From positions 1,272-65,271 of IMG/VR virus record IMGVR_UViG_3300043410_000857: DNA of 64,000 nucleotides; one strand, written 5' to 3'. Below the pieces are notes generated by a model. The model made no database searches. It was not told where the DNA came from and saw only the letters and a list, made by a program, of their open reading frames with translations. Below, in pieces: positions 4,197 to 61,132 of this stretch. The stretch is from a virus. Lineage: Duplodnaviria; Caudoviricetes. Positions within the stretch are counted from its first letter, which is position 1; every line of letters starts with the position of its first letter. The position numbers and the translations under genes were made by a program.

Positions 4197-5021
4197 ATGA
4201 ATATAGCTCAAACAATAACCGATAACATTATTAAACAGTTAGAAGCTGGAGTGGCTCCCTGGGTTAAGCCCTGGCATTCACACGGCATCGATGCACCATA
4301 TAATCCAGTAACCAAGCGTTACTATAATGGTATTAATTTCGTACAGCTCTCGATGATGCCTGGATCAACTCACAATTGGTTAACATATAAACAAGCTCAA
4401 AGCATCGGCGCTCAAGTGCGCAAGGGTTCCGTTGGAGTTCCAGTTATCTATTTCAGTCCGCTCGAGGTTACTGATAAGGTAACAGGCGACGCTAAAAAGA
4501 TTCCAATGCTTAAGCATTACACTGTATTTAATGCGGATCAGATCGACGGCCTGGAGTTACCAGCATCAACCGAGCGCACCGAGATCGAGGCCATTGAATC
4601 ATGCGAGGCATTCATTAAAAGACAACGTGCACGTATCCAGTTCGGAGGCGATCGCGCATTCTATACTCCAACGTTCGATTATATTCAACTCCCGGAGCGT
4701 AACCAATTCAAGTCAACTGGTGATTATTATGCGACAGCATTACATGAGTTATCACACTGGACAGGCCACGAGTCACGACTTAACCGCGACTTTAAGAATA
4801 AGTTCGGATCAGAGGCTTATGCGTTCGAGGAGTTAGTAGCGGAGTTAGGTAGCGCTATGCTATGCGCTCACAATAAGATCGACGGTCAATTACAGCATGC
4901 TAGTTATATCGAGTCATGGCTTCAAGTATTAAAAAGCGATCCTAAGAATATTCTTAAGGCAAGTGCGCTAGCTCAAAAGATCCTAGCATTTACAACCAAC
5001 GAGGAGGCAGAGGAGGCTTAG
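4197..5021 (+). CDS. ardC: ArdC-family antirestriction / ssDNA-binding protein (DUF1738 plus zincin-like domain)
   Basis: ITDNIIKQLEAGVAPWVKPW, YNGIN, WLTYKQA, VRKG, VFNADQ, ALHELSHWTGH, YAFEELVAELGSA. Confidence 0.92.
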   Translation: MNIAQTITDNIIKQLEAGVAPWVKPWHSHGIDAPYNPVTKRYYNGINFVQLSMMPGSTHNWLTYKQAQSIGAQVRKGSVGVPVIYFSPLEVTDKVTGDAKKIPMLKHYTVFNADQIDGLELPASTERTEIEAIESCEAFIKRQRARIQFGGDRAFYTPTFDYIQLPERNQFKSTGDYYATALHELSHWTGHESRLNRDFKNKFGSEAYAFEELVAELGSAMLCAHNKIDGQLQHASYIESWLQVLKSDPKNILKASALAQKILAFTTNEEAEEA

Positions 5022-17031: not shown

Positions 17032-17273
17032 TGAAGAAGACTGCACGCAACGATATCACAGGTGATTTTATTCACAGTAAACCAAGCAGTGATATGTTTG
17101 AAGAAGGTTGGGATAGAATATTCGGCAAGAAAAAAGAAATAGTAGAAGACTCAAGAAAGAATATAAAACCTGAAATATTTACTATACCGAAAGAAAAACA
17201 CGAACATACAATGTTACCAGAATACGAACTCGACAAATCGACAGGTGAGGTAATTAAAAAGGATACACCATGA
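17031..17273 (+). CDS. Hypothetical protein
   Basis: TARNDITGD..SK..S..FEEGWDRIFGK motif common in aquatic phages. Confidence 0.7.
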   Translation: MKKTARNDITGDFIHSKPSSDMFEEGWDRIFGKKKEIVEDSRKNIKPEIFTIPKEKHEHTMLPEYELDKSTGEVIKKDTP

Positions 17274-17896
17274 TAAAAGAACCTAACTTTGAATTATTAT
17301 TTCCGACTCCTGTTATGTTCAGTGAACTTGGTCGTGACTTTACTCAAGCTGAATTAGACTATATAAAAGGTCATGGCGAAGAAGGTAAGACTAATCGTAA
17401 TGTAGGTAATGTCACATCTAATAATAATTACATATTAGAAGAACCTGAAATGGCAGGCTTAAAGAAGTTTGTAACAGAAGCTTTGAATGAATATGTTAAA
17501 CGTGTATATAAACCTAAATATCCTGCAGAATCTTTCGTGACACAATCATGGTTAAACTATACGGCTAAAGGTGAGTTTCATCATAAGCATGAACATCCTA
17601 ACAGTTTTATATCAGGTGTATTATATATTCATACTGATTCAACTAAAGACAAAATTACTTTCCATAGATCGGGATATAAACAATTACAATTAGCTACTGA
17701 CACTTTTGATATTTACAATTCAGATTCATGGTGGTTCAATGTAAAAACGGGTGGTATTGTTATGTTTCCTTCAAGCTTAACGCATCATGTAGAAGATGTT
17801 GTAGCCGATGAAACAAGAATTAGTTTAGCCTTTAATAGTTTTATTAAGGGAACACTCGGTGATAACCGATCATTAACGGAGTTTAAAAATGGCTAA
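17270..17896 (+). CDS. Putative 2OG-Fe(II) oxygenase (TIGR02466-like)
   Basis: LFPTPV, SWLN, HxHxHPNSFISGVLY, FPSSLTHHV, RISLAFN. Confidence 0.85.
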   Translation: MIKEPNFELLFPTPVMFSELGRDFTQAELDYIKGHGEEGKTNRNVGNVTSNNNYILEEPEMAGLKKFVTEALNEYVKRVYKPKYPAESFVTQSWLNYTAKGEFHHKHEHPNSFISGVLYIHTDSTKDKITFHRSGYKQLQLATDTFDIYNSDSWWFNVKTGGIVMFPSSLTHHVEDVVADETRISLAFNSFIKGTLGDNRSLTEFKNG

Positions 17897-18455
17897 AAAC
17901 CTAGAAGACTATATTAAGATTTATCCAACATTAGATACAGAATTATGTGACAAGATTAGAAAAGAATTAGAGGAAGTATCTTGGGAGCAACATCTTTTTT
18001 ATAATTCTGACGGAAAGTATGTTACTCAAAGTGGCAACAGAGAATTAGATATATCATGGGATAATATTCCTAGCCGTGCTGACCTTACTCAAAAGGTTTG
18101 GGAAACAATATCTAAATATATTTTAGAAGATTTTAAAAATCCATACTTTGATGGATGGTCAGGGTTTACTACAATTAGATTTAATCGATATCATCCTGAT
18201 AGATTAATGGCATTACATTGCGATCATATTCATGATATGTTTGATGGCCAACGAAAAGGTATTCCAACACTGACTATATTAGGCGCATTAAATAATGACT
18301 ATGAAGGCGGTGAGTTCTTAATGTTTGATGAAGAAAAAGAATTTAAAATTAAAGCAGGCGAGATTATGATATTCCCGTCAGTCTTTTTATACCCACATCG
18401 TGTGGCTCCTGTTACCAAAGGTGTTAGAGATACATTCGTAAGTTGGGTGTGGTAA
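17889..18455 (+). CDS. 2OG-Fe(II) oxygenase, prolyl-4-hydroxylase-like
   Basis: HCD, LNNDYEGGEF, FPSVFLYPHRVAPVTKGVR. Confidence 0.88.
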   Translation: MAKNLEDYIKIYPTLDTELCDKIRKELEEVSWEQHLFYNSDGKYVTQSGNRELDISWDNIPSRADLTQKVWETISKYILEDFKNPYFDGWSGFTTIRFNRYHPDRLMALHCDHIHDMFDGQRKGIPTLTILGALNNDYEGGEFLMFDEEKEFKIKAGEIMIFPSVFLYPHRVAPVTKGVRDTFVSWVW

Positions 18456-26811: not shown

Positions 26812-26995
26812 GCCTGAATGGGTATTCCCTTTTGAAGCAATGTCCATTGGGGAAAGTTTCTTTATTCCTACGCTAAAGCCTTCGCCTATGATTTATGCAA
26901 TCGAGACGGGGGCTAAACGTGCTGGGGTCAAAATGAAAGCTTTTGTTACAGTGAAAGACAATTGTCTAGGTGTTAGAGCCTGGCGTATTAATTAA
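26795..26995 (+). CDS. Small conserved putative DNA-binding protein
   Basis: FPFEAMSIGESFFIP...GVRAWR; last gene of the + arm. Confidence 0.65.
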   Translation: MSLHTEPEWVFPFEAMSIGESFFIPTLKPSPMIYAIETGAKRAGVKMKAFVTVKDNCLGVRAWRIN

Positions 26996-29900
26996 TCGCC
27001 GTATTCTTCTATAAGTTGATTCTTAAGTTTCTTATTAAGATAAACACCGTCTACTGAATTCTTAACACGCTCTTCCTTACCAATATAAGAACGTCTTAAT
27101 GTATCTGTAGATATTGAATATGAAGGATGAGCTTCATTAAAGTTGCGTCGTTTCTGATCAATCTCAGCTAGCATCTCATCATCACCTGAAATCTTAGCTA
27201 GGTAATATAAGTCTAGAATAGAAGTACGTCTTGCTTGAATTAGTTGTTCAGCTTTCTTCATAGAGTTAGCTCTAGCATAAGCCTCTGATAGCTCTGCATT
27301 ACTGAATCCAAATATCTGCATGAAGGAACTCATAGCACTTACATCGTCTACAATTTTAGCACCGCTTGATGTTAATGCACCTTCTGTTGCAAATCTAAAT
27401 GCTTTAACAGGATTCTTCACGAAAGATGGAGTCATAGTCTCTAATGCTTTCATTGATTCACCTTGATTGAATTGTGTCATTGCACGTTCAGGATTTACAA
27501 GTAAAGCTTGGTAAGCTGGGCCGAAGAAGTGTTCTGCTACGTATGGAGCAAATCCAACTTCAGATAAGCGTCGGTCATCGGTATGCCATACCATGCCATT
27601 GAAACCTGTTCTCGAAGCAATATCGAGATTTGTTAATTTATTGAGTGGGCCTTTATAACCGAGATCCCCGATGGCTGATCGAACTTGTTCATCAAAATCA
27701 TATGGCTCATCGTCATCACCAAACATAGCTGCGCAAGCAGACATAAACATATTAGCTGCGCCGTAGAGAGGTAAGCCTTGAGCACCAGAGAATGCATAAG
27801 TCATACCCATAATACCTGCTAATTGTTTTTGTGCAATTAACCGAGTAGGCTTATCAACACCTTGGAATGCTTGATGAAACAGTCTAGCTACGTTATAAAT
27901 CTGTGTTTGAGCAAAGCGTTTGAAAGTAAATGCAACCTTACCTAGTCCAGTTTGGAACATCTTAGGACCAGCTTCAGATAAAGCATGTGAATGAGATCTA
28001 ACTGTAATATCAATTGCTTCTTTAATAGCTTGTTCTGGGGATAAACCTTTTTCAATACCTAAATCATATGCAGCAATTAATGTAACTTCTCTATTCAATC
28101 TTTCTGAATTACCGAATACCCAACCAAGTCCTGTCTCAATCTTGGCTCTAGTTCCAGTAAATTCATCTGCTGTAGAACGACGCATTTCGGTCAATTCATA
28201 ACCTACGTTACGACGAAGTGCTGATTGACTTACCGCTGCATGATAAAGTTTGTAGTATTTATCACCAGGTTTTAAATTAGCACCGAAGCTAAAGTCAGGC
28301 ATGAATCTTCTATTAGTATCAAAGCCGCCTTTTCTATAAGTACCATATGCATTACTTAAAGCTTTAAATGTAGCACCCCAACCATATTTACCACTAAGCA
28401 TAGGCACTACAACCATAGGAACTTGAGTTAAGTTGATAAGCGCAGAAGATACGTTACCTGCAATATGCCACATGTAACTGAACCAACCTAAGTTAGAAGA
28501 TAAGTTATCTGCTACAGGATTGTCTAAGAATTTCTTTTGATCATACATATTTTGAGCGACTTGAGAAATCACTTTGTTTTGATTAAAGTCAGGATTATTT
28601 TGCCTATATGCTGCTTCTTGATCTTTTAACTCTTTATAGTGTTCATCTAACTCAGGTCTAAATTCTAGGTTAGATAATTGATTAGCTAGTTTAGAACCTA
28701 CATCAGCAAAGCCGCCTACTACGTCTTTAATATATCCTTCTACGCCTTCACGAGTACGCATTTGTTGACGTAAGGATTCATCTGGGAATAGATCTAGGTA
28801 TGATTTATAAACTTCATTAATAAGTCGTTCTTTGCTTTCACGTTGTACTGGGTCTTCTTCATTAATAACCATTTGCTTATCTAGTAAGTCAATAATATTT
28901 TTAACGAAGCCAATAGGAGGTGTATCTTTATAGTTTACTTCTCGAGTAATAAGAGATGATTCAAAATCTTTACCGCCTGCAGCTTGAGCTTTTCTTTGTT
29001 CATCAGCTATTTCAGCAGGGGATTCTCTATGAACTACAACGCGTTCACCATTCTTATCATTATAAGCAAGTCTATAATTGCCTTTACGACGTAGTGGTAA
29101 GTAGAATGAAATCTTTTCATTTTCAAAACGAGTTCTTAATTGATCTGCAATACTCTTGCCTGCACGACGTTCTACTTGATCAATCATTTTATTACGGTAT
29201 TCAGCGTATTGATTAGAATACTTATATGCTAAGTCAGTTAATTCTTTAGGTAAGTTATTCCAAGCACGGATAAGTTCTTCATCATAATTCTCTTGGTCTT
29301 TCTTCGCTACTCTAGGATCGATACGGTTAGCAGTAAGCTTATGTGCAATATCATTAAATTTATCTATAACTGGTTTTGGGTACTTCTTAAGAATGTCAAC
29401 ACCGTCAAATACCATATGTTCAACTTTTTCACGAAGTTGTTCTAAGACATTACCACGTCTATTAATAGTATCTAAAATCTTATTAAGTGCAGGTAATTCA
29501 GTGCCAAATAACTCTGTCATCTGAGGTAATGACAAGAATGACATACTTAGAGCTCTTAATTTATCTGGAATAATAGAGTAGACGTTACGTACTTCACGGC
29601 CAAGCTTACTATTATAAACTGGAGTAGATCTAATTGTTTCACCTACAGAATCTACTAAACTTCTAGACTCTTGTACATCATATTGATTAAGGTCTTTCTT
29701 AGCTTGCAATGCCATCGCTGGCGCAGCTGTCTCTTTTTGTTTTAATGTTGTACGTAGTGAATGCAAGATCATGTCTTGGATATCAGCAGACGTCATATTA
29801 TTAGGATTATATAACCCAGCTTTAGTTAAGAATGTTTTAACTGCAGCAACAACTCGACGCCAAATAGTATTTTGTGGCGCTGTTTCACCAATTCTAGCAA

Positions 29901-32343
29901 GTACTTCACGTAGATAAGCTTCAGAATTAGGTTGTAATTCAGGATACATTTTAGTTACATGATCATGTGCTGCCGTAACTGCAGGATCCATTTTGTTTAA
30001 TTGTTTAACTTGGCGCAATACTTGTTTATAAATATCTTTACCAAGCATACCTTCTAAACCTTGATGCTCACCTACTTCATGTAATAATGTACGACGTGCA
30101 GTATCTTTTGATACTCGGTTAGCAATAATGTAGGATTTACCTTTATGGTATGCACCTACTGTAGAGGCACCAATCTTATCTTGAATCTCACGAGGTAAAT
30201 CTTTTACATCATTCACAATACCTATGACACCACGTTTGATTGCATTGCGGATGTTATTACCAAATTCTTTTACTAGATGGCTAATAAGTGATTCAGATGT
30301 TTCGCCTGTTGTTGGGGCAGCTGCTCTTGATTCTTGTGGAGTAGTAGGCATCGATACATCTACTTGATTACCTTCTCGATTAAACGGGAACGGCATAGCC
30401 CAATTACCATCTTCATTAGCTAAATGCATAGGAAGATTTTCTTGATAATCAAAATTGTTTCTATCAAACTGTTCAGACCATCTTATATTTCCTTCTACGT
30501 CTACAGGCATATGAGTGTATCCAGCTTCTTTTAAAGCTAGTGCCCTATGTCTTCCTTCATGTCCTGTTACTTTAGCAACGGTAGGATTTTTTTCAGAAGT
30601 ATTAAAAAATAATTGAGGGATACCTTTAAAGTTTCTATCTTCAAATTGACCACCTTTTGCAACAATTTCTCTAGCATTTTTAAGTTTATCAGCGTCTACT
30701 TTATCCTCTTTAGCTAACGCTAAAAACTGATCAATAGGCATCAGTACTCTATTAGTACGATTCTTATGCTGGTTAACTGCTTGATTAAATGTTTCAGGTT
30801 CAGCGCCTTTAAAGAATTTAATTGAGTCTTCTGGTTTTAATGCACCAGGCTCTGGCGTTTTTCCTCTTTCAGGTTGTCCAATAATACCTGTAGTGTCGCT
30901 AGGTCCAGCTCCGAGGCGTTTTTCAGTTCTTCCGGGTAATCCTCGCTCCACGGGCTGTCCAAGTAACGAAATATCTTGTGTAGTTGCTGGGGGGACCAAT
31001 CCTTCATCTTTAACTCTCATTTCCTGAATAGGTGGTTTAAATTGTATTTCCTCAACAAGTTTCTCGTCAAGCTTGCCTTTTTTCATAGCATCAATCACTG
31101 CATACTTATCTTCGTTTGCAAGTTGATCAAACTTAATATCACTCATTGAGTTCCATTTTTCAATGGCTTGTTGTTCGTATGGAATATTTTTAGCACCGCT
31201 TGGTGGGGCAGGAGGTGGTGCACCAGGTAACACATTCGCTGATGCTAAGTCGCCTAGTTCTGGTGGAGGTGGAGCTGGCTCTTCTTTAGTTTCTGTTTTA
31301 CCACGTATACCTTCTACTGCACCAGCAGGAGCACCAAAGATACCACCAGCAATAGAACCACGTAGACCAGACTCAATAATTCTATCCCACTCTTTTGAAC
31401 CAAATACTTCTGGGTGATCTGCAATAAAACGTTCTGCTGCAATACTGATGCCTTCTTGAGCTGACTCAGTTAAACCTTCCATTGCCATGCCTTCACCGAG
31501 TGCGGCTGTAGCACTTCTAAGTACACCTGGTTTCATACCAGATTTTTCTAGAATCTTTTCAGCGATAGACATCTTTAACTGTTTGTCTGCTGGGCCTGCT
31601 AATTTTTTAAATACGTAAGCTGGGAATGCTGAATCTAAACCAGCACTGACTGAAGAATATAACGCAGCTGCACCAGGTTCTAATTTACCTGTAGCATCGT
31701 ATACATTTTGAAATAATTCAGGATAGTTTTGTGCGTATGAACCTAAGTAAATACCTAAGTTTTGACCAACCATTTGTCTCTTAGCTAATTCAGGTGCTGC
31801 TTCTTTTAACTTATTAGCCGCGTATAGTTGAGCAGCTTCACCAGTAAGACCAGCTTCTGCGGCAGCTTTTTCAGCTGCTTCCATTAAACCACGTTTAGCT
31901 AATGCACCAGCACCAACACGACCTACAGCACCAGGACCAATACTTGTTAATAAATTAAGTGCTTGTTCACCTGCTGTTTCTAAAGCGTAAGTACCAAGAC
32001 TTGTAGGACCTGTAATTTCTTTATAGGATTGTACTTCGGCAGGATGTTGTGCTTGGATCATGCGTTGTGTTTCAGTCGCTTCATCCATTTGACGCTTAGC
32101 ATAATCTTCAAAACCTAATGCAGAACCTACCGCTGCAGGAATAACATCTCCAAATGCAGAACTAAGTTGCATCTTACCACGCTCCCAAGCATGACCTAAA
32201 GCTTCAGAAGGTGTGTAATCAGGGCGGAAAGGTTTTTGTTCAGGTAGTTTTTCGTTTTCAATTGCGCTTGCAATTTGATCTTTGGTCATATCATCTGGGA
32301 ATGATACAACGCCATAACCTTGAATATTAATTAACTGAGGCAT
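26992..32343 (-). CDS. Large internal virion / ejection protein (polyvalent: ParB-like, zincin, PLxRFG-like)
   Basis: 1783 aa, last late gene; GHEGRHRALAL, LLHEVGEH, YLPLRRKGNY. Confidence 0.7.
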   Translation of the reverse strand: MPQLINIQGYGVVSFPDDMTKDQIASAIENEKLPEQKPFRPDYTPSEALGHAWERGKMQLSSAFGDVIPAAVGSALGFEDYAKRQMDEATETQRMIQAQHPAEVQSYKEITGPTSLGTYALETAGEQALNLLTSIGPGAVGRVGAGALAKRGLMEAAEKAAAEAGLTGEAAQLYAANKLKEAAPELAKRQMVGQNLGIYLGSYAQNYPELFQNVYDATGKLEPGAAALYSSVSAGLDSAFPAYVFKKLAGPADKQLKMSIAEKILEKSGMKPGVLRSATAALGEGMAMEGLTESAQEGISIAAERFIADHPEVFGSKEWDRIIESGLRGSIAGGIFGAPAGAVEGIRGKTETKEEPAPPPPELGDLASANVLPGAPPPAPPSGAKNIPYEQQAIEKWNSMSDIKFDQLANEDKYAVIDAMKKGKLDEKLVEEIQFKPPIQEMRVKDEGLVPPATTQDISLLGQPVERGLPGRTEKRLGAGPSDTTGIIGQPERGKTPEPGALKPEDSIKFFKGAEPETFNQAVNQHKNRTNRVLMPIDQFLALAKEDKVDADKLKNAREIVAKGGQFEDRNFKGIPQLFFNTSEKNPTVAKVTGHEGRHRALALKEAGYTHMPVDVEGNIRWSEQFDRNNFDYQENLPMHLANEDGNWAMPFPFNREGNQVDVSMPTTPQESRAAAPTTGETSESLISHLVKEFGNNIRNAIKRGVIGIVNDVKDLPREIQDKIGASTVGAYHKGKSYIIANRVSKDTARRTLLHEVGEHQGLEGMLGKDIYKQVLRQVKQLNKMDPAVTAAHDHVTKMYPELQPNSEAYLREVLARIGETAPQNTIWRRVVAAVKTFLTKAGLYNPNNMTSADIQDMILHSLRTTLKQKETAAPAMALQAKKDLNQYDVQESRSLVDSVGETIRSTPVYNSKLGREVRNVYSIIPDKLRALSMSFLSLPQMTELFGTELPALNKILDTINRRGNVLEQLREKVEHMVFDGVDILKKYPKPVIDKFNDIAHKLTANRIDPRVAKKDQENYDEELIRAWNNLPKELTDLAYKYSNQYAEYRNKMIDQVERRAGKSIADQLRTRFENEKISFYLPLRRKGNYRLAYNDKNGERVVVHRESPAEIADEQRKAQAAGGKDFESSLITREVNYKDTPPIGFVKNIIDLLDKQMVINEEDPVQRESKERLINEVYKSYLDLFPDESLRQQMRTREGVEGYIKDVVGGFADVGSKLANQLSNLEFRPELDEHYKELKDQEAAYRQNNPDFNQNKVISQVAQNMYDQKKFLDNPVADNLSSNLGWFSYMWHIAGNVSSALINLTQVPMVVVPMLSGKYGWGATFKALSNAYGTYRKGGFDTNRRFMPDFSFGANLKPGDKYYKLYHAAVSQSALRRNVGYELTEMRRSTADEFTGTRAKIETGLGWVFGNSERLNREVTLIAAYDLGIEKGLSPEQAIKEAIDITVRSHSHALSEAGPKMFQTGLGKVAFTFKRFAQTQIYNVARLFHQAFQGVDKPTRLIAQKQLAGIMGMTYAFSGAQGLPLYGAANMFMSACAAMFGDDDEPYDFDEQVRSAIGDLGYKGPLNKLTNLDIASRTGFNGMVWHTDDRRLSEVGFAPYVAEHFFGPAYQALLVNPERAMTQFNQGESMKALETMTPSFVKNPVKAFRFATEGALTSSGAKIVDDVSAMSSFMQIFGFSNAELSEAYARANSMKKAEQLIQARRTSILDLYYLAKISGDDEMLAEIDQKRRNFNEAHPSYSISTDTLRRSYIGKEERVKNSVDGVYLNKKLKNQLIEEYGD

Positions 32344-43413: not shown

Positions 43414-44409
43414 TTAAGCTGTGTATGTACCAGAACCGCTGGTCCATTTAATTATAGTATTACTTCCTGATGTTGTCACGGTCGGTGAGCCAGTTGTAGT
43501 ACCTGTATAATTTGCTGTAGGTACTGAAATAATAACTACACCCGAACCTCCAGCACCAGAATAATTTGTGCCATTAGCGCCTCCACCTCCACCACCACCA
43601 GTGTTTGCAGTTCCAGCAATTGCAGCACCTCCGCCTCCGCCATTTCCATCACCTGCACCTCTACCACCTCCACCAGCTCCACCTGAGCCTGCTGTGCCAG
43701 TAGTTGTATATGATGCCCCTCCACCTCCACCAGCGTATGTAACTGAAGAACCTGTAATAGAAGATGCGGTTCCAGCACCACCATTACCACCAGCAGAAGA
43801 AGTTCCTAATCCGCCTACAGCACTTGCCCCACCACCTCCGCCTGATCCATAAACTGGTGCTGTTTCAGTACCTAATCCACCAGCGTTACCTTGTCCTGGT
43901 GTACCAGATCCTGCTGTGCCTGATCCATTATAAGTAGCCGCTCCACCGCCTGATCCACCATTTGCACCATTTCTATTATTTGGTGAATCTGTTCCTGCTC
44001 CGCCACCACCTCCGCCTATGGCGGTTGTTAATCCAGTAAATGTAGAATTACTTCCAGACGCAGAAGATCCATAAGTCTGACTAGATCCGCCAGCACCTAC
44101 TACCGCTGTATAAACTGTACCGACAGCTAGAGTTGTAGTACCAGTTAAATATCCACCAGCACCTCCTCCGCCACCCCGTCCAGTATTTGGTCCATTTTGA
44201 CCTCCGCCTCCGCCTCCAGCAACTACTAAATATGAAGCAGTATATGTAGGTGCAGTAGAAACTAAGACCCATGAAGTACCGTTATAAACTTCTAGCTGAG
44301 CATAGCTTGTGTTATATCCAGTTTGTCCTGTTGCGGGTGATGTAGGCCTTGCTGCTGTTGTCCAGCTAGGAAATCCTGCGCCTGTTGTTCCACCTAATAT
44401 AAATGCCAT
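43414..44409 (-). CDS. Glycine-rich tail fibre / receptor-binding protein 5
   Basis: YLVVAGGGGGG...ANTGGGGGG...GGSGVVII; conserved C-terminus SGTYTA. Confidence 0.75.
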   Translation of the reverse strand: MAFILGGTTGAGFPSWTTAARPTSPATGQTGYNTSYAQLEVYNGTSWVLVSTAPTYTASYLVVAGGGGGGQNGPNTGRGGGGGAGGYLTGTTTLAVGTVYTAVVGAGGSSQTYGSSASGSNSTFTGLTTAIGGGGGGAGTDSPNNRNGANGGSGGGAATYNGSGTAGSGTPGQGNAGGLGTETAPVYGSGGGGGASAVGGLGTSSAGGNGGAGTASSITGSSVTYAGGGGGASYTTTGTAGSGGAGGGGRGAGDGNGGGGGAAIAGTANTGGGGGGGANGTNYSGAGGSGVVIISVPTANYTGTTTGSPTVTTSGSNTIIKWTSGSGTYTA

Positions 44410-44427
44410 TTGTTTCTCCTAAAATCT

Positions 44428-45432
44428 TTAAGCTGTATAAGTTCCTGAACCAGAGGTCCATTTAATAATTGTATTAGCACCTGATGTTGTAATCGTAGGA
44501 CTTCCTGTCGTTGTACCTGAATAGTTTGCAGTTGGGACAGATAAAATAACTACACCCGAACCTCCAGCTCCACCAGCTAATCTTGGATAAGGTGAAGTAT
44601 CTCCATTAGTGCCACCACCTCCACCACCACCACCTGTATTGGCTGTAGCCGTACCTCCTACTGTACCTGCTGAACCCCCATTTCCTCCATTAGCACCACC
44701 ACCTGCTGAAGCAGTTCCGCCTGTGCCTCCATTTTGACCTCCAGCACCACCACCACCTGAAGCGTATGTTACTGATGATCCTGTAATTGATGAAGCAGTA
44801 CCAGATCCGCCAGAACCTCCTACTCCCGTGCTTGTAGCAGTTCCATTACCACCTGTACTGCCAGATCCACCACCTCCACCACCTACTTGATTACTACCAC
44901 CATTTCCACCATTATTACCTTGGCCTGGAGTACCAGAACCTATTGCACTTGATGCTCCTGCACCACCACCTCCAGAACCTCCAGAACCTCCTGTATTATT
45001 TGTATCACCCCCCGCACCATAACCTCCAGCAGTTGATGTAATAGTTGTCAATCCTGAGCCTGATATAGATGAATCATTTCCTGAAGTGCCTTTTGTACCT
45101 GCTCCATTAACTTGTTGTGGTGATCCAGCTCCTCCACCTCCAACTGTAGCTGTATAAATAATACCGGCATTTAAAGTCATAGTTCCAGTTAAATAACCAC
45201 CAGCACCGCCACCTCCATTATTACCACCACCCCCTCCACCAGCAACTACTAAATAAGAAGCTGTATAGGTAGGGGCTGTAGCTGTAATAATCCAAGATGA
45301 CCCATTATATACTTCTAAAGAATTTAAAGATGTATTAAATCCTGTTTGGCCTGCAGATGGTGTAGATGGGCGAGTTGCCGATGTCCATGTAGGTAAAGTC
45401 ATTCCACCAGTACTAGATATACCTAAGCTCAT
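44428..45432 (-). CDS. Glycine-rich tail fibre / receptor-binding protein 4
   Basis: Same polyglycine domain and C-terminus. Confidence 0.75.
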   Translation of the reverse strand: MSLGISSTGGMTLPTWTSATRPSTPSAGQTGFNTSLNSLEVYNGSSWIITATAPTYTASYLVVAGGGGGGNNGGGGAGGYLTGTMTLNAGIIYTATVGGGGAGSPQQVNGAGTKGTSGNDSSISGSGLTTITSTAGGYGAGGDTNNTGGSGGSGGGGAGASSAIGSGTPGQGNNGGNGGSNQVGGGGGGSGSTGGNGTATSTGVGGSGGSGTASSITGSSVTYASGGGGAGGQNGGTGGTASAGGGANGGNGGSAGTVGGTATANTGGGGGGGGTNGDTSPYPRLAGGAGGSGVVILSVPTANYSGTTTGSPTITTSGANTIIKWTSGSGTYTA

Positions 45433-45719
45433 GCGGCTTTCCTGACCCTAGTTTTTTTATTCTTTTTATTTGCTTCTAACATATCTATAAATTCACGAAT
45501 CGTTTGGTGACGAATATATTCATCTCGTATTTCTTGTGATGATGGTGGTGGTAATTCGTTTGACTCATCCCACGATACGATTTCAAAAGTACCTCCAGAG
45601 GCTGATAAGCCGTAAAGTGCACCTGGTCGTAATGACTTCATCACAATGTCAATACCAAATTGAAAACCTTGTTCGTTACTAAATTCTTTAATTAATTCTT
45701 CTATAGTCATCTTTGCCAT
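45429..45719 (-). CDS. Small fibre-associated protein (XkdW-like)
   Basis: SLRPGA...W......PPSSQEI. Confidence 0.5.
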   Translation of the reverse strand: MAKMTIEELIKEFSNEQGFQFGIDIVMKSLRPGALYGLSASGGTFEIVSWDESNELPPPSSQEIRDEYIRHQTIREFIDMLEANKKNKKTRVRKAA

Positions 45720-45728
45720 AATTATACC

Positions 45729-46988
45729 CTATGCTGTGTAAGTTCCTGAAGCTGTATATTTTAATATAGTATTTGACCCAGAGGTAGTTACAGTAGGTGA
45801 ACCAGTGGTTGTACCTGTGTATTTAGCAGTTGGAATAGAAAGAACAACTACACCAGAACCACCTGTACCTCCAGTACCACTATTTCTACGGCCTCCACCG
45901 CCACCGCCACCAGTATTAGCAGTTGCATTACCACCAGCACCAGCACCGCCACCACCAGCACCACCAGCACCTGCAGTAGCAGTTTCAGATCCACCTCCGC
46001 CACCACCACCATAATTAGCTGGAGTTCCTGTAATAGATGAAGCAGCACCTGCACCACCTGCTGTTGGATTATTATCTGAAGCATTTAATGCCGCTGCCGC
46101 TGTACCACCTCCGCCACCTGCTGATGAGTTAGATGAAACACCGCCACCATTACCCCCACCATATCCTTGACCAGGCGTACCAGCACCACCAGTAGCAAAA
46201 GTACCAGGTTGAGCAGCTCCACCGCCACCGCCACAACCGCCTGAAGCACCATTAAAACCAGGTCCATTATTACCTCCATAACCCCCACCTACGGCAGTTT
46301 GGGTTGTAACGCCTGATCCTGATAATACAGAGTTTGTACCATTTGTATTTACCGCACCACCACCACCCACAGTAATTGTATAAACTTGCGTTGGCGTAAA
46401 TGATGCAGTTCCTGTTAGTAATCCACCAGCTCCACCGCCTCCACCAGCATATGGAAATCCAGTAGTTGTACATGAGCCTCCGCCAGCACCACCAGCTTCA
46501 ACTAAATAAGAAATTGAATAGGGCTGTGTAAAAGGCGTTGATCCACCATAAACGTTACTTGAAGCTAACCAACCTTGTGTTGAATCAATATAAGTTAGTG
46601 TAATACCTTGACGGTTTGTTTTTAAAGTTGCATTACCAGAGGTGCCATTAATATTTGCACCGTTACCTGCCACAGTTATATTATTAGTAGCTGCAGTTCC
46701 TGCATAATCAACAATGACTACAAACTGACCACGAGTTGGAGTTGCTGGTAGTGTTACTGTAAACGCTGCACTTGTTGTATTACAAAAATATCCTGCGTTA
46801 GCAGTAGCTGTAAATCCAGTTGTTTGCGGTGTTGTATTCCATGCAATTGTATTTGGCATGGTTGATGAATTACTTAAAACCGCAGTACCTGTTTCTGCTG
46901 GCCATGTTAATGTGTTTGATCCTGCAATTGCTGGACCTTGCACTGTTATAACACCAGACGTATCTCCTGCTATACCAAACTTTGCCAT
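45729..46988 (-). CDS. Glycine-rich tail fibre / receptor-binding protein 3
   Basis: VTLPATP..G..DYAGTAATNNITV module plus polyglycine domain. Confidence 0.75.
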   Translation of the reverse strand: MAKFGIAGDTSGVITVQGPAIAGSNTLTWPAETGTAVLSNSSTMPNTIAWNTTPQTTGFTATANAGYFCNTTSAAFTVTLPATPTRGQFVVIVDYAGTAATNNITVAGNGANINGTSGNATLKTNRQGITLTYIDSTQGWLASSNVYGGSTPFTQPYSISYLVEAGGAGGGSCTTTGFPYAGGGGGAGGLLTGTASFTPTQVYTITVGGGGAVNTNGTNSVLSGSGVTTQTAVGGGYGGNNGPGFNGASGGCGGGGGAAQPGTFATGGAGTPGQGYGGGNGGGVSSNSSAGGGGGTAAAALNASDNNPTAGGAGAASSITGTPANYGGGGGGGSETATAGAGGAGGGGAGAGGNATANTGGGGGGGRRNSGTGGTGGSGVVVLSIPTAKYTGTTTGSPTVTTSGSNTILKYTASGTYTA

Positions 46989-48223
46989 TATGCTGTGTAG
47001 CTTCCTGAACCAGAAGTAAATTTAATAATTGTATTGCTACCTGATGTTGTAATTGTAGGAGAGCCTGTTGTAGTACCAGTATAGTTTGCAGTAGGTACGG
47101 ATAAAATAACTACGCCTGAACCGCCAGTAGAACCTGTACCTCCTCCAGAACCACCACCGCCACCACCAGTATTAGCAGTTCCTGCAGAACCTGTACCACC
47201 TTGTGAACCTGTACCACCACCTCCACTACCACCAGTACCTTGTGGGTTTACGTTAGATGCTCCGCCACCTCCGCCTGCATAGAAAGCAGGTGTACCTGTA
47301 ATTGAAGAAGCTGATCCAACTCCACCAGAAGCACCACCAGATGAAGGACCATTAGATCCAACTCCACCTGCACCGCCTCCGCCACCACTAGCAAAAGAAG
47401 GAGAACCTGGATAACCTGTACCACCTGCAAAACCTTGACCTGGAGTACCAGATCCACCAGCAGTACCACCGTTTTGACCAGATCCACCACCGCCTGATCC
47501 TCCAGAAGCACCACCACTATTAGCACCACCAGCACCTCCACCTACTGCAGTTGTAACTCCAGTTAAAGTTGAAGAACCACCTGCACTAGCTGCAGCACCT
47601 CCGCCACCTACAGTGACTGAATAAGTTGTTCCTGCTGTTGCAGAAAATGAACCAGATACTAATCCACCAGCGCCACCAGCACCACCAACCCAAAAGTTAC
47701 CTCCTTGACCACCGCCACCGCCGCCTGCTACGGATAAATATGTAATTGTGTATTGAACAGGAGAAGGGTTTCCTGAAGAGTAAACATCGGAATAATATAA
47801 CCAACCTTGAGTTGAGTCTACATAAACTAAATTTACGCAAGTACGGTTTGTACTAATTATGCCTGTACCTGTAGAACCTTGTAATTTATTACCATTTGGA
47901 TTAACTGTAATATTATTTGTAGCTGCCGTTCCTGCATAGTCAAGAATAGAAATAATTTGCCCTGCTGTAGGAGATGCTGGAAGTGTTACAGATAATGTAC
48001 CAGACGTCGTATTCATTGGGTAGCCTGTACCTGCTACTGCTGGGTTCACACTTGATGTTTGCACTGTGGTCCAGTTGACAGTATTAGGTATGTTTGATGT
48101 TGACGCTGTTGTGATAATCGTACCTGTAGCTGCTGGCAGTGTGATGGTATTAGAGCCCGCTATTGCTGGCACTGTCAGTGTTAAGGTACCTGATGTATCT
48201 CCGTTAAGTAAAATGCTTGACAT
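46988..48223 (-). CDS. Glycine-rich tail fibre / receptor-binding protein 2
   Basis: Paralogue of 45729-46988. Confidence 0.75.
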   Translation of the reverse strand: MSSILLNGDTSGTLTLTVPAIAGSNTITLPAATGTIITTASTSNIPNTVNWTTVQTSSVNPAVAGTGYPMNTTSGTLSVTLPASPTAGQIISILDYAGTAATNNITVNPNGNKLQGSTGTGIISTNRTCVNLVYVDSTQGWLYYSDVYSSGNPSPVQYTITYLSVAGGGGGGQGGNFWVGGAGGAGGLVSGSFSATAGTTYSVTVGGGGAAASAGGSSTLTGVTTAVGGGAGGANSGGASGGSGGGGSGQNGGTAGGSGTPGQGFAGGTGYPGSPSFASGGGGGAGGVGSNGPSSGGASGGVGSASSITGTPAFYAGGGGGASNVNPQGTGGSGGGGTGSQGGTGSAGTANTGGGGGGSGGGTGSTGGSGVVILSVPTANYTGTTTGSPTITTSGSNTIIKFTSGSGSYTA

Positions 48224-48232
48224 AGTTTATCC

Positions 48233-49363
48233 TTAAGCTGTGTATGTACCTGAACCAGAGGTCCACTTGATAATTGTATTAGAACCTGATGTAGTAATTG
48301 TTGGGCTACCTGTTGTAGTACCTGAGTATACTGCAGTAGGTACTGAAAGAATAACTACACCTGAACCGCCATTACCTCCTGGTCCATCTCCTGGGTTACT
48401 AAATGCACCGCCACCACCGCCGCCACCAGTGTTTGCAGTTCCTGCAGTTCCTGCATTTGATGGTCCAGATCCCCCTGCACCACCTCCGCTAGACGCTGTT
48501 CCTCCAGCTGTACTTAATGGCGCTCTTATGTCTCCACCTCCGCCACCACCTCCAGCATAACCAACAGGTGTGCCAGTAATAGAGTTAGAAGTTCCTGTTC
48601 CACCCGCACCAGCTGGTGCTACTAAACCTCCAGGAGCAGCATTAGTTCCGTTACTTGATGCTCCACCGCCTCCAGCACCTAAACCATATGTACTATAGTT
48701 AGTACTAAATCCACCACTATTACCTTGTCCAGGAGTTCCTGCATATCCTGAGTATGTACCGAATCCACCACTTGCTCCACCTCCAGAACCTCCAGTAGCT
48801 CCAGCAGCACCAAATGATGTTCCAGCACCTCCACCTACTGCGGTAGTAGCGCCTGTAAATGTTGAGTTTGATCCAGAAGAAGATGCAGCATTTCTACTTG
48901 TTGCTCCAGAACCACCAGCTCCAACGACAGCTGTATAAACAGTTCCTGATCCTAAATTTATAGTAAATGATCCAGTAATATAACCACCAGCGCCGCCACC
49001 TCCGCCTTGTGTTGATCCTCCACCAGCGCCTCCAGCAACGACTAAATAAGTTGCTGTACCAGATGCACCTGAAGTACCAGCATTAGCCCATGATGAATAT
49101 GTAGCATTGTAAACTTCAATTTGATTAGTTGTTGTATTGTATCCAGTTGTACCTGTTGGAGGTGTTGAAGGACGTGTACCTGTAGTCCATGTAGGAAGAT
49201 TTAATTGACCAGAAGCTGATAATGCACCAGTAATTGTAAGTCCAGTAGAAGTTAAAGTAGCTACTGTAGATCCATTTGATTGAAGTCCTATTTGTCCTGA
49301 TGAGTCACCCGTTGTGACTATACCACCAGCTCCTGTTGTGATTGCATTTATCGTTGATGCCAT
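48233..49363 (-). CDS. Glycine-rich tail fibre / receptor-binding protein 1
   Basis: LPTWTTGTRPS..G.TGYNT module plus polyglycine domain. Confidence 0.75.
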   Translation of the reverse strand: MASTINAITTGAGGIVTTGDSSGQIGLQSNGSTVATLTSTGLTITGALSASGQLNLPTWTTGTRPSTPPTGTTGYNTTTNQIEVYNATYSSWANAGTSGASGTATYLVVAGGAGGGSTQGGGGGAGGYITGSFTINLGSGTVYTAVVGAGGSGATSRNAASSSGSNSTFTGATTAVGGGAGTSFGAAGATGGSGGGASGGFGTYSGYAGTPGQGNSGGFSTNYSTYGLGAGGGGASSNGTNAAPGGLVAPAGAGGTGTSNSITGTPVGYAGGGGGGGDIRAPLSTAGGTASSGGGAGGSGPSNAGTAGTANTGGGGGGGAFSNPGDGPGGNGGSGVVILSVPTAVYSGTTTGSPTITTSGSNTIIKWTSGSGTYTA

Positions 49364-58139: not shown

Positions 58140-58440
58140 AAATTAACATCACTGAATCAACGTTAGTAATAGCAGCGTAAACACCTGTACGTGCTCTAAT
58201 ACCTTCACCTGGAAGTAAGAGATAGTAAGTGCCTTGATTAGCCGCTGTTGGAGTACTAACTGTAGCTAATGGAATACCGCTTGTATTTGATCCGTCATAT
58301 AAAACTACAGTACCTGCAAGAGCTGCAGAAGTTCCGTAAATAGCTTTGATACGGCAAGGACCTAATACAGTAGCTTGTTGAGTCTTAAATGTATTACTTG
58401 AGCCTAGTGGTTGCGTTACTAGTACATCGGTTTGCATCAT
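58132..58440 (-). CDS. Small virion structural protein
   Basis: MQTDV, LPGEGI, beta-rich. Confidence 0.65.
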   Translation of the reverse strand: MMQTDVLVTQPLGSSNTFKTQQATVLGPCRIKAIYGTSAALAGTVVLYDGSNTSGIPLATVSTPTAANQGTYYLLLPGEGIRARTGVYAAITNVDSVMLIYG

Positions 58441-58443
58441 AAT

Positions 58444-58599
58444 TTATTCCCCTTGTGGTTCTTCTGTATCTAATCTTTCCACTAATGCAGTATATGCATC
58501 GATGGCGCCTTGAGATGCTGTAACAAAACTAGATGCTTGATTACGCTCTGCCTCAAGACGCTTGATCTCAGACAAAAGAAACTCTTTTGTAATTTCCAT
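58444..58599 (-). CDS. 51-aa coiled-coil protein (not in ORF track)
   Basis: MEITKEFLLSEIKRLEAERNQASSFVTASQGAIDAYTALVERLDTEEPQGE*; TAATG coupling. Confidence 0.65.
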   Translation of the reverse strand: MEITKEFLLSEIKRLEAERNQASSFVTASQGAIDAYTALVERLDTEEPQGE

Positions 58600-59180
58600 T
58601 ATTGTGCGTTAGAAACCATTAAGTAGTAAGGAGTGCTACCAACCATAATCTTGATTGTATGAGTCACTGCCGCTGCTGTCTTAGCTGGAACTAATGCTGA
58701 AGGTAAGTTAAAGAGGTTAGTAATAGCACCTGTAGTAGCACCAGAATCTGTTACTCTAATAAATGATGCTGTAGCTGGAACTGTAACACCTGCACCAAAG
58801 TTTGTATCAGCTTGAATAACTGATAGTGTACCTGTTTGAGCTGTTTGTGTACCACCTAAAGTAGCTCTGATTGCATTACCTGCACCAGAAATCTTACCTG
58901 AACCATCTACTTCTAAAGAAATATGAGCACCATTGATTGTGCCACCTACAGCTGCTGTAGTTGTAGTAACTACTGAGAAAGCTCTTAATGTTTCGCCAGA
59001 ACCTGCTGCTGTAAATGTTAATTTGTCATACATTAAACGAGTATCACCTGTTGTAGCAGATGTTGTACCGTAAGATGCATTGATATTTTGTGCTGTTGTT
59101 ACTGTGATTGGGCTTGTAGCTGTACCGCCAATAAAGCCATTTTGAGACGACACTGGGCCGCTAAACGTTGTTAATGCCAT
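58599..59180 (-). CDS. Virion structural protein (head fibre/decoration-like)
   Basis: MALTTFSGPVSSQNGF N-terminus typical of post-capsid genes. Confidence 0.65.
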   Translation of the reverse strand: MALTTFSGPVSSQNGFIGGTATSPITVTTAQNINASYGTTSATTGDTRLMYDKLTFTAAGSGETLRAFSVVTTTTAAVGGTINGAHISLEVDGSGKISGAGNAIRATLGGTQTAQTGTLSVIQADTNFGAGVTVPATASFIRVTDSGATTGAITNLFNLPSALVPAKTAAAVTHTIKIMVGSTPYYLMVSNAQ

Positions 59181-59185
59181 GATAT

Positions 59186-59261
59186 TTTTCCTTCATACAA
59201 AGTTAAGCTTATCCGTCTTGTATGCGTCTGCCGGGACAGTCTGATAAGCCGGGTAACCCGG
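59186..59261 (-). promoter_or_regulatory. Candidate pseudoknotted 5' leader RNA
   Basis: GGCUUAUC/GAUAAGCU crossed by CAUACAAG/UUUGUAUG, ending at the AAGGA RBS. Confidence 0.5.
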
Positions 59262-59299
59262 ATTCCCAAATAATACCTGAATTGATACTATTTGCAAGC

Positions 59300-59308
59300 A
59301 TTATAGCA
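59300..59308 (-). promoter_or_regulatory. Extended -10 late promoter
   Basis: TGCTATAAT. Confidence 0.65.
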
Positions 59309-59314
59309 CAGAAT

Positions 59315-59341
59315 AAAAAGAAAACCCCTATTTCTAGGGGT
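59315..59341 (-). terminator. Terminator after pqqA
   Basis: ACCCCTAG-AAA-TAGGGGT followed by TTTCTTTTT on - strand. Confidence 0.8.
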
Positions 59342-59360
59342 CTCAGTCGTACGTTTTTTA

Positions 59361-59438
59361 TTACTTATTCATCACGTACATAGTCACTTCAAAGCCAAAT
59401 CTCATTTCAGTTGCTGCTGGTTTTGTCCATTTTGACAT
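59361..59438 (-). CDS. pqqA: Pyrroloquinoline quinone precursor peptide PqqA (auxiliary metabolic gene)
   Basis: Hand translation MSKWTKPAATEMRFGFEVTMYVMNK*; W-x-x-P...R-x-G-x-E-V-T-x-Y PqqA signature; AAGGAGAA RBS; not in ORF track. Confidence 0.95.
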   Translation of the reverse strand: MSKWTKPAATEMRFGFEVTMYVMNK

Positions 59439-59536
59439 AGTAATTCTCCTTAAAATTTTCGTACACACCATGTGTACAGTTGTCAATATATTACTTTTTT
59501 GACTTTAATTCTTACGTAAAACCATGAAAACAGGGT

Positions 59537-59572
59537 AAAGAAAAAGGGCCTACGTTTTAAGTAAGCCCTTTT
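59537..59572 (-). terminator. Terminator after major capsid gene
   Basis: AAAAGGGCTTAC...GTAGGCCCTTTTTCTTT on - strand. Confidence 0.8.
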
Positions 59573-59595
59573 AGTAGTACGTAGCCAGTTGCTAA

Positions 59596-60510
59596 TTAAG
59601 CACCTGGTGAACCCCACATACCGAGAGGATCTGACCAACCAAAGCTGTAACGTTCACGAGCTTTGTAACGTACGTTACCTGTATCAAAGTCACCGTCCAT
59701 AGATGTTGATAATGGAATACGTTCAAAGTGTTTCATGCCGTTAGGAACATCAGTTGTTAAGAAGTAAGCGTTGCTATCTGTTAAGAAGTGGTTAATTGTG
59801 TAACCTTCTGGGATAGAACCGTTGTTCTTAATCGCGTTGATGTCATTGTCAGCTGTTGATACACGTAATTCAGTTTCTAGCAAGCGAGTTGCAACGAATT
59901 GCAATGCTGGTGGAACAACTAATTTACGTGGTTGAGCAGCGATCAAGAGACCACGCTCATCAGTCCAAGCAGCAATTTGAATAACTGCATTTTCAAGAGC
60001 AGTTTCATTTAAGTCTGTTGGAGTTGATTGAGTGTTGCTGTTTGAACCGCCACCAACAAGTGGGTGAGCTGTGTTGAATAATGAAACGCCATCACCACCG
60101 TTGTAAGAACCAGAAGTGTTAAAGCCATTATTAAGAACAGAAGCTGCCTTAACTTGTTTTGTGTATGCCATAGCGCGAGCTAAAGCTTTTGTGTAACGTG
60201 CTGATAATGTGTCATACAAGTTATCTTCTACAGCTTCTTCAGTTAAGCTGAAGCCAAGAGCGATAGTTTGATGATTGTATCGAGCTGTCCAAGCTTCTTG
60301 AGCATTGTCATAAGCGATTGCAGTGCCTTCGTTTTTGACTGGTGCTGCTGAGAAACCTGAAAGTTTTGTTTCTTCTTCGAATGAACGTTCTGATGATTCT
60401 GTTTCATAAATCTCTTTATGTTCTTCACCGTAACGTTTGTATTCTAGACCAAATAATGCATTTAGTCCTGGTAATAGCTCTTTAAGGAGCTGTGCGCGTG
60501 AAATTGCCAT
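59596..60510 (-). CDS. Major capsid protein
   Basis: MAISRAQLLKELLPGLNALFGLEY, LFNTAHP, PRKLVVP, DFDTGNVRYKARERYSFGWSDP. Confidence 0.9.
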   Translation of the reverse strand: MAISRAQLLKELLPGLNALFGLEYKRYGEEHKEIYETESSERSFEEETKLSGFSAAPVKNEGTAIAYDNAQEAWTARYNHQTIALGFSLTEEAVEDNLYDTLSARYTKALARAMAYTKQVKAASVLNNGFNTSGSYNGGDGVSLFNTAHPLVGGGSNSNTQSTPTDLNETALENAVIQIAAWTDERGLLIAAQPRKLVVPPALQFVATRLLETELRVSTADNDINAIKNNGSIPEGYTINHFLTDSNAYFLTTDVPNGMKHFERIPLSTSMDGDFDTGNVRYKARERYSFGWSDPLGMWGSPGA

Positions 60511-60526
60511 GTTATTTTCTCCTTAG

Positions 60527-61132
60527 TTAAGCTGTGGCAGTGCCAAGTGTGTTAAGTTGTTGATGCCATGTACCATTAAACTTAACGATAACTTCTGAGT
60601 AATAACCAGTAGTTGGATCGACAGTTTCAGGAACAAGAGCAGTCACTCTGAATAAGAATGTTGCGTCAGCAGCAGCAGAAGTACCATCAACAGATGAATT
60701 GATATTACCTGTTGAAGCACTGCCTGTACCTGCAACACCTTTAACGTTTGTATTTAAAATAGTACCTGCTACTGGAGTAATCGTTTGATTATTGCCTGTA
60801 ACTGCTACTTTAAATTCAGCAGCTGGATCATTAACAACATAAGCAATAACGTTAGTTACGCCTGTTGCTGGTGCATATTGAGCTTGCACTGTTTGACCAG
60901 ATGAATTTGTATATTGTACACCTACACAAACACCGACAGCGTAAACGCTTGTGCCGTGAATGTCTGCAGCAGATTGTACTGTGCCGCCTGCGACGAAAGC
61001 CAATACTTGACCATTGTAAACAGCTTGACCAGATGTAACAGGGTACTGATTAGTAGCACCTGCATATGGCATGCCGTCAAAACGGTTGATTGGTTTAAAG
61101 CCGTAGGGAGCGGTAACTGATGGATAAGCCAT
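60527..61132 (-). CDS. Capsid decoration / minor capsid protein
   Basis: APYGFKP, VGVCVGVQYT, AYVVNDP; directly upstream of the capsid gene. Confidence 0.65.
   Translation of the reverse strand: MAYPSVTAPYGFKPINRFDGMPYAGATNQYPVTSGQAVYNGQVLAFVAGGTVQSAADIHGTSVYAVGVCVGVQYTNSSGQTVQAQYAPATGVTNVIAYVVNDPAAEFKVAVTGNNQTITPVAGTILNTNVKGVAGTGSASTGNINSSVDGTSAAADATFLFRVTALVPETVDPTTGYYSEVIVKFNGTWHQQLNTLGTATA

Follow-up and report, generated by a model that had tools for sequence, protein, structure and literature searches.

A 25-codon open reading frame (ORF) immediately downstream of the major capsid gene of an uncultured freshwater phage raises the question of whether a virus can carry, as a one-gene cassette, the precursor peptide of the cofactor PQQ and, if so, where this gene came from and what the phage would gain from it. 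The window analyzed here is a stretch of 64,000 nt, corresponding to bases 1272-65271 of the 65,271-base IMG/VR record IMGVR_UViG_3300043410_000857. The record has direct terminal repeats and a completeness estimate of 100%, and the window belongs to a bona fide complete phage genome. The phage encodes a large terminase, the capsid protein, a family A DNA polymerase, an SNF2 helicase, a DUF927 primase-like protein and tail-fibre paralogs, along with an ArdC-like protein, three 2OG-Fe(II) oxygenases and a PD-(D/E)XK nuclease. No tyrosine integrase was found in the genome (controls positive in 14 of 14 cases), and the 65-kb phage is apparently lytic. No tRNA genes were found in the window, and the Rfam search returned zero families at the gathering score across the whole window and zero at E<=1 in the region 58400-60700. 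The features of the locus are collected in Table 1.

Table 1. Features of the pqqA cassette and its flanking genes (positions in the window)
Feature	Position	Strand	Description
Major capsid protein gene, 304 aa	59596..60510	(-)	PF25209 Phage_capsid_4, 51.1 bits; PF10124 Mu-like gpT, 40 bits
Terminator-like hairpin and T run after the capsid stop	~59534..59572	(-)	12-pair stem; MFE and centroid folds
Upstream box TTTTCATGGTTTTACGTAAG, core ATGGTTTT	59511..59530	(-)	87 nt before ATG; conserved alignment column
-10-like hexamer TATATT	59485..59490	(-)	5/6 to TATAAT; overlaps TTGACA 59481-59486
Palindrome GTACACA-CCA-TGTGTAC	59461..59477	(-)	exact; sole copy in the window
Shine-Dalgarno site AAGGAG	59446..59451	(-)	7 nt before ATG
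pqqA	59361..59438	(-)	25 codons and stop; ATG at 59438, stop TAA 59363-59361; peptide MSKWTKPAATEMRFGFEVTMYVMNK; matches to TIGR02107 and PF08042
Intrinsic terminator	59311..59344	(-)	10-pair stem, loop GAAA, T run; terminator scan (59344-59321 and T run) and folds
Next structural-module gene, 193 aa	58599..59180	(-)	far edge of the insertion slot

The preliminary description of this DNA took the 25-codon ORF, with its AAGGAG ribosome-binding site, for a gene encoding PqqA, and both the ORF and the site are indeed present on the minus strand. The peptide matches TIGR02107 with 40 bits (cut-off 20, E 2.3e-10) and PF08042 with 42.7 bits (cut-off 21.1, E 5e-11), that is, at about twice the curated cut-off for either model, and a six-frame search of the whole record recovered it with a PqqA model score of 38 bits. 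An alternative TTG-started frame of 41 aa (59486-59361) obtains model scores no higher than those of the 25-aa ORF. The conserved E-x3-Y pair of PqqA, a peptide of some 20-40 residues, gives rise to the ring system of PQQ; its Glu and Tyr are the residues that become cross-linked (Barr et al. 2016, as cited in PMC7678222), and it is represented by E17-V-T-M-Y21 within the 25-residue peptide. The ORF is a genuine, intact pqqA, with scores far above chance.

This pqqA stands alone, as had been claimed from the outset. A tblastn search with PqqB-E of the Methylophilus metagenome-assembled genome (MAG) L124, chosen over the Klebsiella MAG locus L169 with its apparently fragmented ORFs, found no pqqB-E in the window (E<=1e-3), and four NCBIfam models together with a PQQ alcohol-dehydrogenase model detected neither pqqB-E nor such a dehydrogenase in the whole 65,271-base record. 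The TIGR02111 model had zero matches in the record, a weak answer because its controls were silent as well; tblastn with a real PqqC was likewise negative. Thus, pqqA does not co-occur with pqqBCDE in the phage genome, and the enzymes PqqB-E would have to be supplied by the host. The absence of pqqBCDE does not disqualify the phage gene, because all five Methylophilaceae genomes searched have 3-7 pqqA matches (3, 4, 5, 7 and 6, respectively) for a single PqqE above the cut-off, and because the host pqqA copy L182 also has no adjoining pqq gene. Methylophilaceae chromosomes have been described as carrying 3-12 pqqA copies along with single pqqBCDEFG genes (Beck et al. 2014, PMC4109929, as far as the accessible text goes). 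That a streamlined genome keeps three pqqA copies fits a precursor supply that is worth extra gene dosage.

We then compared the phage gene with copies of pqqA collected by a degenerate DNA pattern for an intact FGFEVTMY, to which decayed copies are invisible; conservation inside this motif is forced by the pattern, the sample is not random, and prevalence derived from it is a lower bound. In the prokaryote genome collection, the pattern occurs in at least 120 stretches, with 130 matches listed. The 22-residue core of the window peptide, W4-K25, is reproduced without change in 14 of these 130 bacterial matches; for eight of the 14, record titles are available, and these name Methylophilus, Methylotenera or Methylophilaceae. 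The commonest bacterial form (29 of the 130 matches listed) differs by one residue and comes from Methylophilaceae, too, whereas copies labelled Methylococcales or Methylophaga have just 12-15 of the 22 residues in common with the window core. The near-identity to Methylophilaceae PqqA, which the preliminary description had put forward, is therefore real. In the Methylophilus MAG L124, pqqB, C, D and E, each above its curated cut-off, come after the identical core, and the presence of this core in such a pqqABCDE operon makes it likely that the phage PqqA would be recognized by PqqD/PqqE.

Over the 66 nt that encode the core, the window DNA and the 14 bacterial copies with the identical peptide disagree at 7-12 positions (11-18%), every one of them synonymous; for 20 viral copies with the identical peptide, the figure is 1-12 positions. 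The longest exact DNA match between the region 59300-59600 and the 120 bacterial loci listed is 23 nt and lies within the coding part. When the set is limited to copies in which 18 or more of the 22 residues are identical, pN/pS is 0.119 for 109 viral copies versus 0.108 for 57 bacterial ones; with the eight pattern-fixed codons removed, the values are 0.214 and 0.203. Viral pqqA is under purifying selection much like its cellular counterparts, and the high synonymous divergence at a conserved peptide argues that the gene is old and maintained in phages. Taken together, this constraint and the repeated appearance of the gene in phages that are not related make a selected function of phage pqqA very likely.

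The gene recurs both within a clade of related phages and across lineages. The capsid protein encoded directly upstream of the cassette is 71.5% identical to that of Planktothrix phage Pag-Yong1, 66% to that of phage DSL-LC04 and ~64% to those of pelagiphages HTVC023P (63.7%) and HTVC027P, so the capsid of the window phage is related to that of HTVC023P. Among the viral loci listed, 17 encode capsids that are 77-98% identical to that of the window. The region behind the capsid genes of related phages had been proposed as a place to look for further copies, and pqqA lies downstream of the capsid gene, on the same strand, in all 17 of these loci, at a distance of 82-1160 nt (<300 nt in 14). In two loci with remoter capsids (45% and 41%), pqqA is 7.6-9.9 kb off. 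The 193-aa gene on the other side of the cassette has zero matches in Pfam and NCBIfam and is 87.6% identical to the gene that follows pqqA in locus L042. In Pag-Yong1 and HTVC023P, which are relatives on other hosts, the next structural gene begins ~105-155 nt after the capsid gene, and tblastn of the peptide found no pqqA in either record, so the cassette has been inserted, in one clade, into the gap that follows the capsid gene. Three records listed under three different cyanobacterial hosts (OQ594354.1, OL906435.1 and PP438419.1), each 65,014 bp long, have the same capsid match statistics (71.5%) and are without pqqA by tblastn of the peptide; they may represent one phage, possibly of a heterotroph in cyanobacterial cultures.

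A telling variant of this arrangement is found in locus L093, where the capsid is 81% identical to that of the window. Only 52 nt separate the capsid stop from the pqqA ATG, and a hairpin together with a Shine-Dalgarno site fills this interval; there is no space for a promoter, so pqqA would be reached solely by read-through of the capsid transcript. The preliminary description had argued that the placement behind the capsid gene matters. Such read-through makes this plausible for part of the clade. The PqqA of L093 (1620-1860, minus strand) is of a different type, ending in IANK, and the forms closest to it in the bacterial loci listed come from Burkholderiales and Betaproteobacteria MAGs, not from Methylophilaceae, which suggests that the capsid-downstream slot has been refilled in this phage to suit another host.

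Beyond this clade, 50,697 phage records were searched with the peptide by tblastn, and 12 of them matched at E<=10. Nine are isolates named for Methylophilales or Methylophilaceae hosts (Venkman, four Melnitz, MEP301, MEP401, MEP402 and P19250A), and one is an uncultured spring-water podovirus. Two records named 'Acinetobacter phage MD-2021a' were rejected as cases of phage pqqA and not counted; the one examined (L250, CAKLQF020000010.1 103207-113263) is a bacterial chromosome contig that encodes fur, ppk, pqqB, pqqC, pqqD, a radical SAM gene and a dipeptidase, with its pqqA unannotated. Five isolate records were inspected (Venkman, P19250A, MEP301, MEP402 and Melnitz-1), and all five contain an intact, ATG-started pqqA preceded by a Shine-Dalgarno site. 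In none of them is the gene annotated: the Melnitz-1 copy lies under an opposite-strand ORF, and the others fall into annotation gaps. The Melnitz-1 ORF, a 'hypothetical protein' (MZ577095.1 74848-74943; L246 2464-2559) that overlaps the intact pqqA (locus positions 2498-2572) on the other strand, is probably a miscall.

The cultured methylophages thus have the same lone, intact gene as the window phage, with PqqA 78-96% identical over residues 1-25 or 3/4-25. Unlike the window phage, they represent other lineages, with Melnitz classed by its record in Kyanoviridae, MEP402 in Zobellviridae and the rest having genomes of 35-39 kb, and their pqqA is located among early or recombination genes or beside tRNA genes rather than behind the capsid gene. 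The papers that we found on these phages (open-access papers and bioRxiv) contain no mention of pqqA; in the accessible text of the Melnitz paper, PQQ appears only as a medium ingredient, at 1 nM in the OM43 medium (PMC9004378). In IMG/VR, at least 120 stretches contain the pqqA pattern, and the 120 listed are, without exception, in-frame short PqqA-like ORFs, none of which has PqqB-E nearby.

How would such a small gene be expressed? Alignment of 20 cassettes revealed a conserved order of elements, namely, a hairpin with a T run, the box TCATG(A/G)TTTT, a TATAAT-like hexamer, a second hairpin, AAGGAG, the ORF and a terminator. That the ORF is bounded by a terminator of the capsid gene and one of its own agrees with the preliminary description, the latter being recovered by both the terminator scan and the folds and the former by the folds only. 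The capsid-side hairpin was not called by the scan; in the aligned relatives, a hairpin with a T run occupies the same place with a different stem sequence. Leader and 3'-end hairpins are common to viral and bacterial copies as a rule; the one at the 3' end has a z of -2.99 in the window, and the means are -3.1 for the 102 viral copies listed and -4.7 for the 50 bacterial ones. Of the copies listed, 99 of 104 viral and 50 of 53 bacterial ones have a Shine-Dalgarno-like site no more than 20 nt from the ATG.

The preliminary description also noted TTGACA and a palindrome upstream of the ORF. Both are present, but the promoter reading of TTGACA is not supported: only two of the 20 aligned cassettes, those of the window and of L073, contain this hexamer, and the sigma-70 scan called zero promoters upstream of pqqA, with no -35 that fits. 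TTGACA is probably not the -35 element. The overlapping TATATT, in contrast, aligns with the TATAAT-like hexamers of the relatives and is a candidate -10 element. Palindromes of this type (up to two mismatches) are not rare by chance, with at least one in 29 of 100 shuffles. The palindrome folds in both the MFE and the centroid structures, with -8.1 kcal/mol and a z of -2.66 for the 50-nt leader; in relatives, hairpins with different sequences occupy this position, and the mean z of the leader hairpin is -1.5 (102 viral and 50 bacterial copies listed; 25 shuffles). More likely, the pqqA mRNA has the palindrome as a stem-loop at its 5' end or close to it.

A further conserved element is the upstream box. 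The pattern ATGRWWWT is found upstream of 85 of the 104 viral and 43 of the 53 bacterial pqqA copies listed, compared to 16-20% of random 135-nt windows from the same loci. The variant TCATGGTTTTAC occurs a single time in the window. The 1.3-Mb genome of Ca. Methylopumilus universalis, the source of L182, contains the dyad YATGAWWWTCATKA at four sites (zero for the reversed control). The only two perfect CATGAAAATCATGA palindromes found in this genome, at C1:416025-416039 and 1186146-1186160, are each located ~100 nt upstream of an orphan pqqA, and the third pqqA copy of this genome is associated with a half-site variant, a TAATAT hexamer, a hairpin and a Shine-Dalgarno site. The two other dyad sites were considered as a sign of a wider regulon and rejected, being imperfect and located inside rhodanese and VTT-domain genes. 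Judged from these comparisons, the box is a conserved upstream element common to host and phage pqqA, with the dyad CATGAAAATCATGA in the hosts and its variant TCATGGTTTTAC in the window. We infer that it is a regulator site, a candidate operator of a pqqA regulator. If TATATT serves as the -10 element, the transcription start would fall roughly at the palindrome, with the center of the box near -42, where a bound activator could stand in for the -35 element. No paper on a pqqA promoter box was found among open-access papers and bioRxiv.

Among the closest known counterparts of the phage cassette are the dispersed orphan pqqA genes of the hosts (Beck et al. 2014, PMC4109929, in its accessible text), which encode the identical core and have the same lone, one-gene layout away from pqqBCDE. 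They also share with the phage cassette the upstream box, the leader hairpin, a strong ribosome site and the terminator. The phage copy differs in being part of a virus genome, in its DNA (by the 11-18% given above) and in the distance between the box and the ATG, the median of which is 87 nt for viral copies, exactly as in the window, versus 121 nt for bacterial ones.

Methylophilaceae (OM43, LD28/Methylopumilus and Methylotenera) are major methanol oxidizers of seas and lakes, and a member of this family is the predicted and well-supported host of the window phage. Contigs at least 99% alike to the window were recovered from the aquatic-labelled runs X1 (84 of 1047) and X5 (4 of 98) and from the freshwater-labelled run X8 (16 of 139; 0 of 26 in run X7); none of the 24 runs listed contained half of the sampled words. 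One X8 contig joins position 59444 to 59571. The GC content of the window is 38.8%, compared to 34% for the Methylopumilus locus and 40-45% for the Methylotenera loci. Given the freshwater and aquatic run labels and the GC content, the data fit a freshwater member of the family (Methylopumilus- or Methylotenera-like) rather than marine OM43. The earlier proposal of a Methylopumilus/OM43-like host is accordingly supported for the family but not for the genus, and marine OM43 does not fit. In RNA-labelled runs, there are contigs over both the capsid gene and the pqqA bin; contigs, however, cannot show transcription, the ends of a transcript or its level, and the ORF part (88% likeness) could come from any pqqA.

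The explanation that we consider probable is that pqqA was derived from a host and is maintained as a one-gene cassette in a lytic Methylophilaceae phage, as an auxiliary metabolic gene that supplies the PQQ precursor. We infer a transcription start, expression of the gene, conversion of the peptide to PQQ and a benefit to the phage, along the following lines. The two flanking hairpins would yield a short, stable and highly translated mRNA. The phage would make the peptide only; host PqqD/PqqE would cross-link Glu17 to Tyr21, and a host protease, PqqB and PqqC would complete PQQ. Each PQQ would use up one peptide, whereas the enzymes are catalytic, and because the peptide alone would be consumed in this way, the phage copy could keep the precursor flowing once host transcription falls. 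Sustained PQQ-dependent (XoxF-type) methanol oxidation would then provide energy for phage production. Against a precursor-limited supply of PQQ during the phage latent period counts the suggestion, in the accessible text of a study on a production strain, that PqqB or PqqC may be rate-limiting (PMC9851590).

A broader version of this explanation, in which the cassettes carry the host pqqA control box and thereby wire the phage precursor into the host pqqA regulator, with pqqA being a near-universal signature of Methylophilaceae phages in the manner of psbA, is a tentative extension that we consider doubtful. The same box could, conversely, be the point of the cassette: it might titrate or recruit a host factor, or else the peptide might occupy PqqD/PqqE, so that the locus would act as a regulatory decoy or in some other non-precursor role. 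Such a role would agree with a box that is common to host pqqA genes and, in one host genome, nearly specific to them. It is nevertheless unlikely: the peptide itself is under bacteria-like purifying selection, the Shine-Dalgarno-like site is kept in nearly all viral copies listed (99 of 104), L093 retains the ORF even though there is no space for the box, and a peptide identical to that of the host would be a poor inhibitor.

Two further alternatives, which we consider highly improbable and to about the same extent, dispense with a role for the gene product. The cassette could be an attachment site or a stretch of recombination homology to host pqqA loci, comparable to the tRNA fragments of temperate phages; with 3-7 dispersed copies, the host would offer many targets, and the gene is short and conserved in a tRNA-like manner. 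Yet no tyrosine integrase was found in the complete genome, copies that encode the identical peptide have diverged by 7-12 of their 66 nt, the longest exact match to the 120 bacterial loci listed, 23 nt, falls in the coding part, and what the phage carries is a complete gene, start, ribosome site and terminator included. Alternatively, pqqA could be a passenger without benefit, that is, a recent host fragment, or a phage-host assembly chimera, considering that the record is a metagenome assembly and that a tiny gene between terminators resembles many morons of unclear value. The occurrence of the same arrangement in 17 independent contigs with capsids 77-98% identical, the presence of pqqA in sequenced isolates and the combination of high synonymous divergence with a conserved peptide all argue otherwise.

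As the preliminary description had surmised, viral pqqA was not new to metagenomics. A viral PqqA was published in 2020, along with a viral methanol dehydrogenase, from phages of Lake Baikal whose predicted hosts are Methylophilaceae (Coutinho et al. 2020, Microbiome 8:163, PMC7678222). In the accessible text of that paper, the PqqA of the Baikal phage, which is likewise an uncultured freshwater phage, is read as an auxiliary gene for PQQ-dependent methanol oxidation, without a functional test. The Baikal population with PqqA also has a viral methanol dehydrogenase, whereas the window phage has neither this gene nor any other pqq gene. No paper on viral pqqA besides this one was found among open-access papers and bioRxiv. 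Viral PqqA has therefore been known since 2020, and the present phage is a further, well-supported example. The new details are the fixed post-capsid position in one clade, the control box common to host and phage, and the unannotated pqqA in five cultured methylophages.

An apt parallel is psbA of cyanophages, which encodes D1 of photosystem II, an unrelated protein of an unrelated pathway, and the expression and benefit of which have been studied experimentally. The logic would be the same, in that the phage brings only the fastest-consumed part of the host energy machinery. If the phages of Methylophilaceae supplement the PQQ precursor as a rule, infection would reshape a step of the aquatic one-carbon cycle, and pqqA, which is overlooked by gene callers, would become a simple marker by which uncultured phages could be linked to methylotroph hosts. 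If the control-box reading is correct, the box would offer a way to reach an undescribed transcription factor that is specific to pqqA. The cultured methylophage-host pairs make the precursor hypothesis directly testable.

Several other features of the genome deserve mention. The structural region contains a 1783-aa ORF (26992-32343, minus strand) and five more large ORFs (491, 370, 576, 257 and 648 aa), all without a Pfam match. The three 2OG-Fe(II) oxygenase genes are separate (3345-3869 on the minus strand; 17270-17896 and 17889-18455 on the plus strand). At the start of the early region, the ORF at 4197-5021 (plus strand) combines an ArdC N-terminal domain (PF08401) with a zincin-like metallopeptidase (PF18818), the fusion being an anti-restriction-type protein. 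Finally, five tandem paralogs (331, 334, 419, 411 and 376 aa) encoded at 43414-49363 on the minus strand each match phrog_2295, with weaker matches to tail-fibre or tail-spike families, and look like a cassette of alternative receptor-binding proteins.
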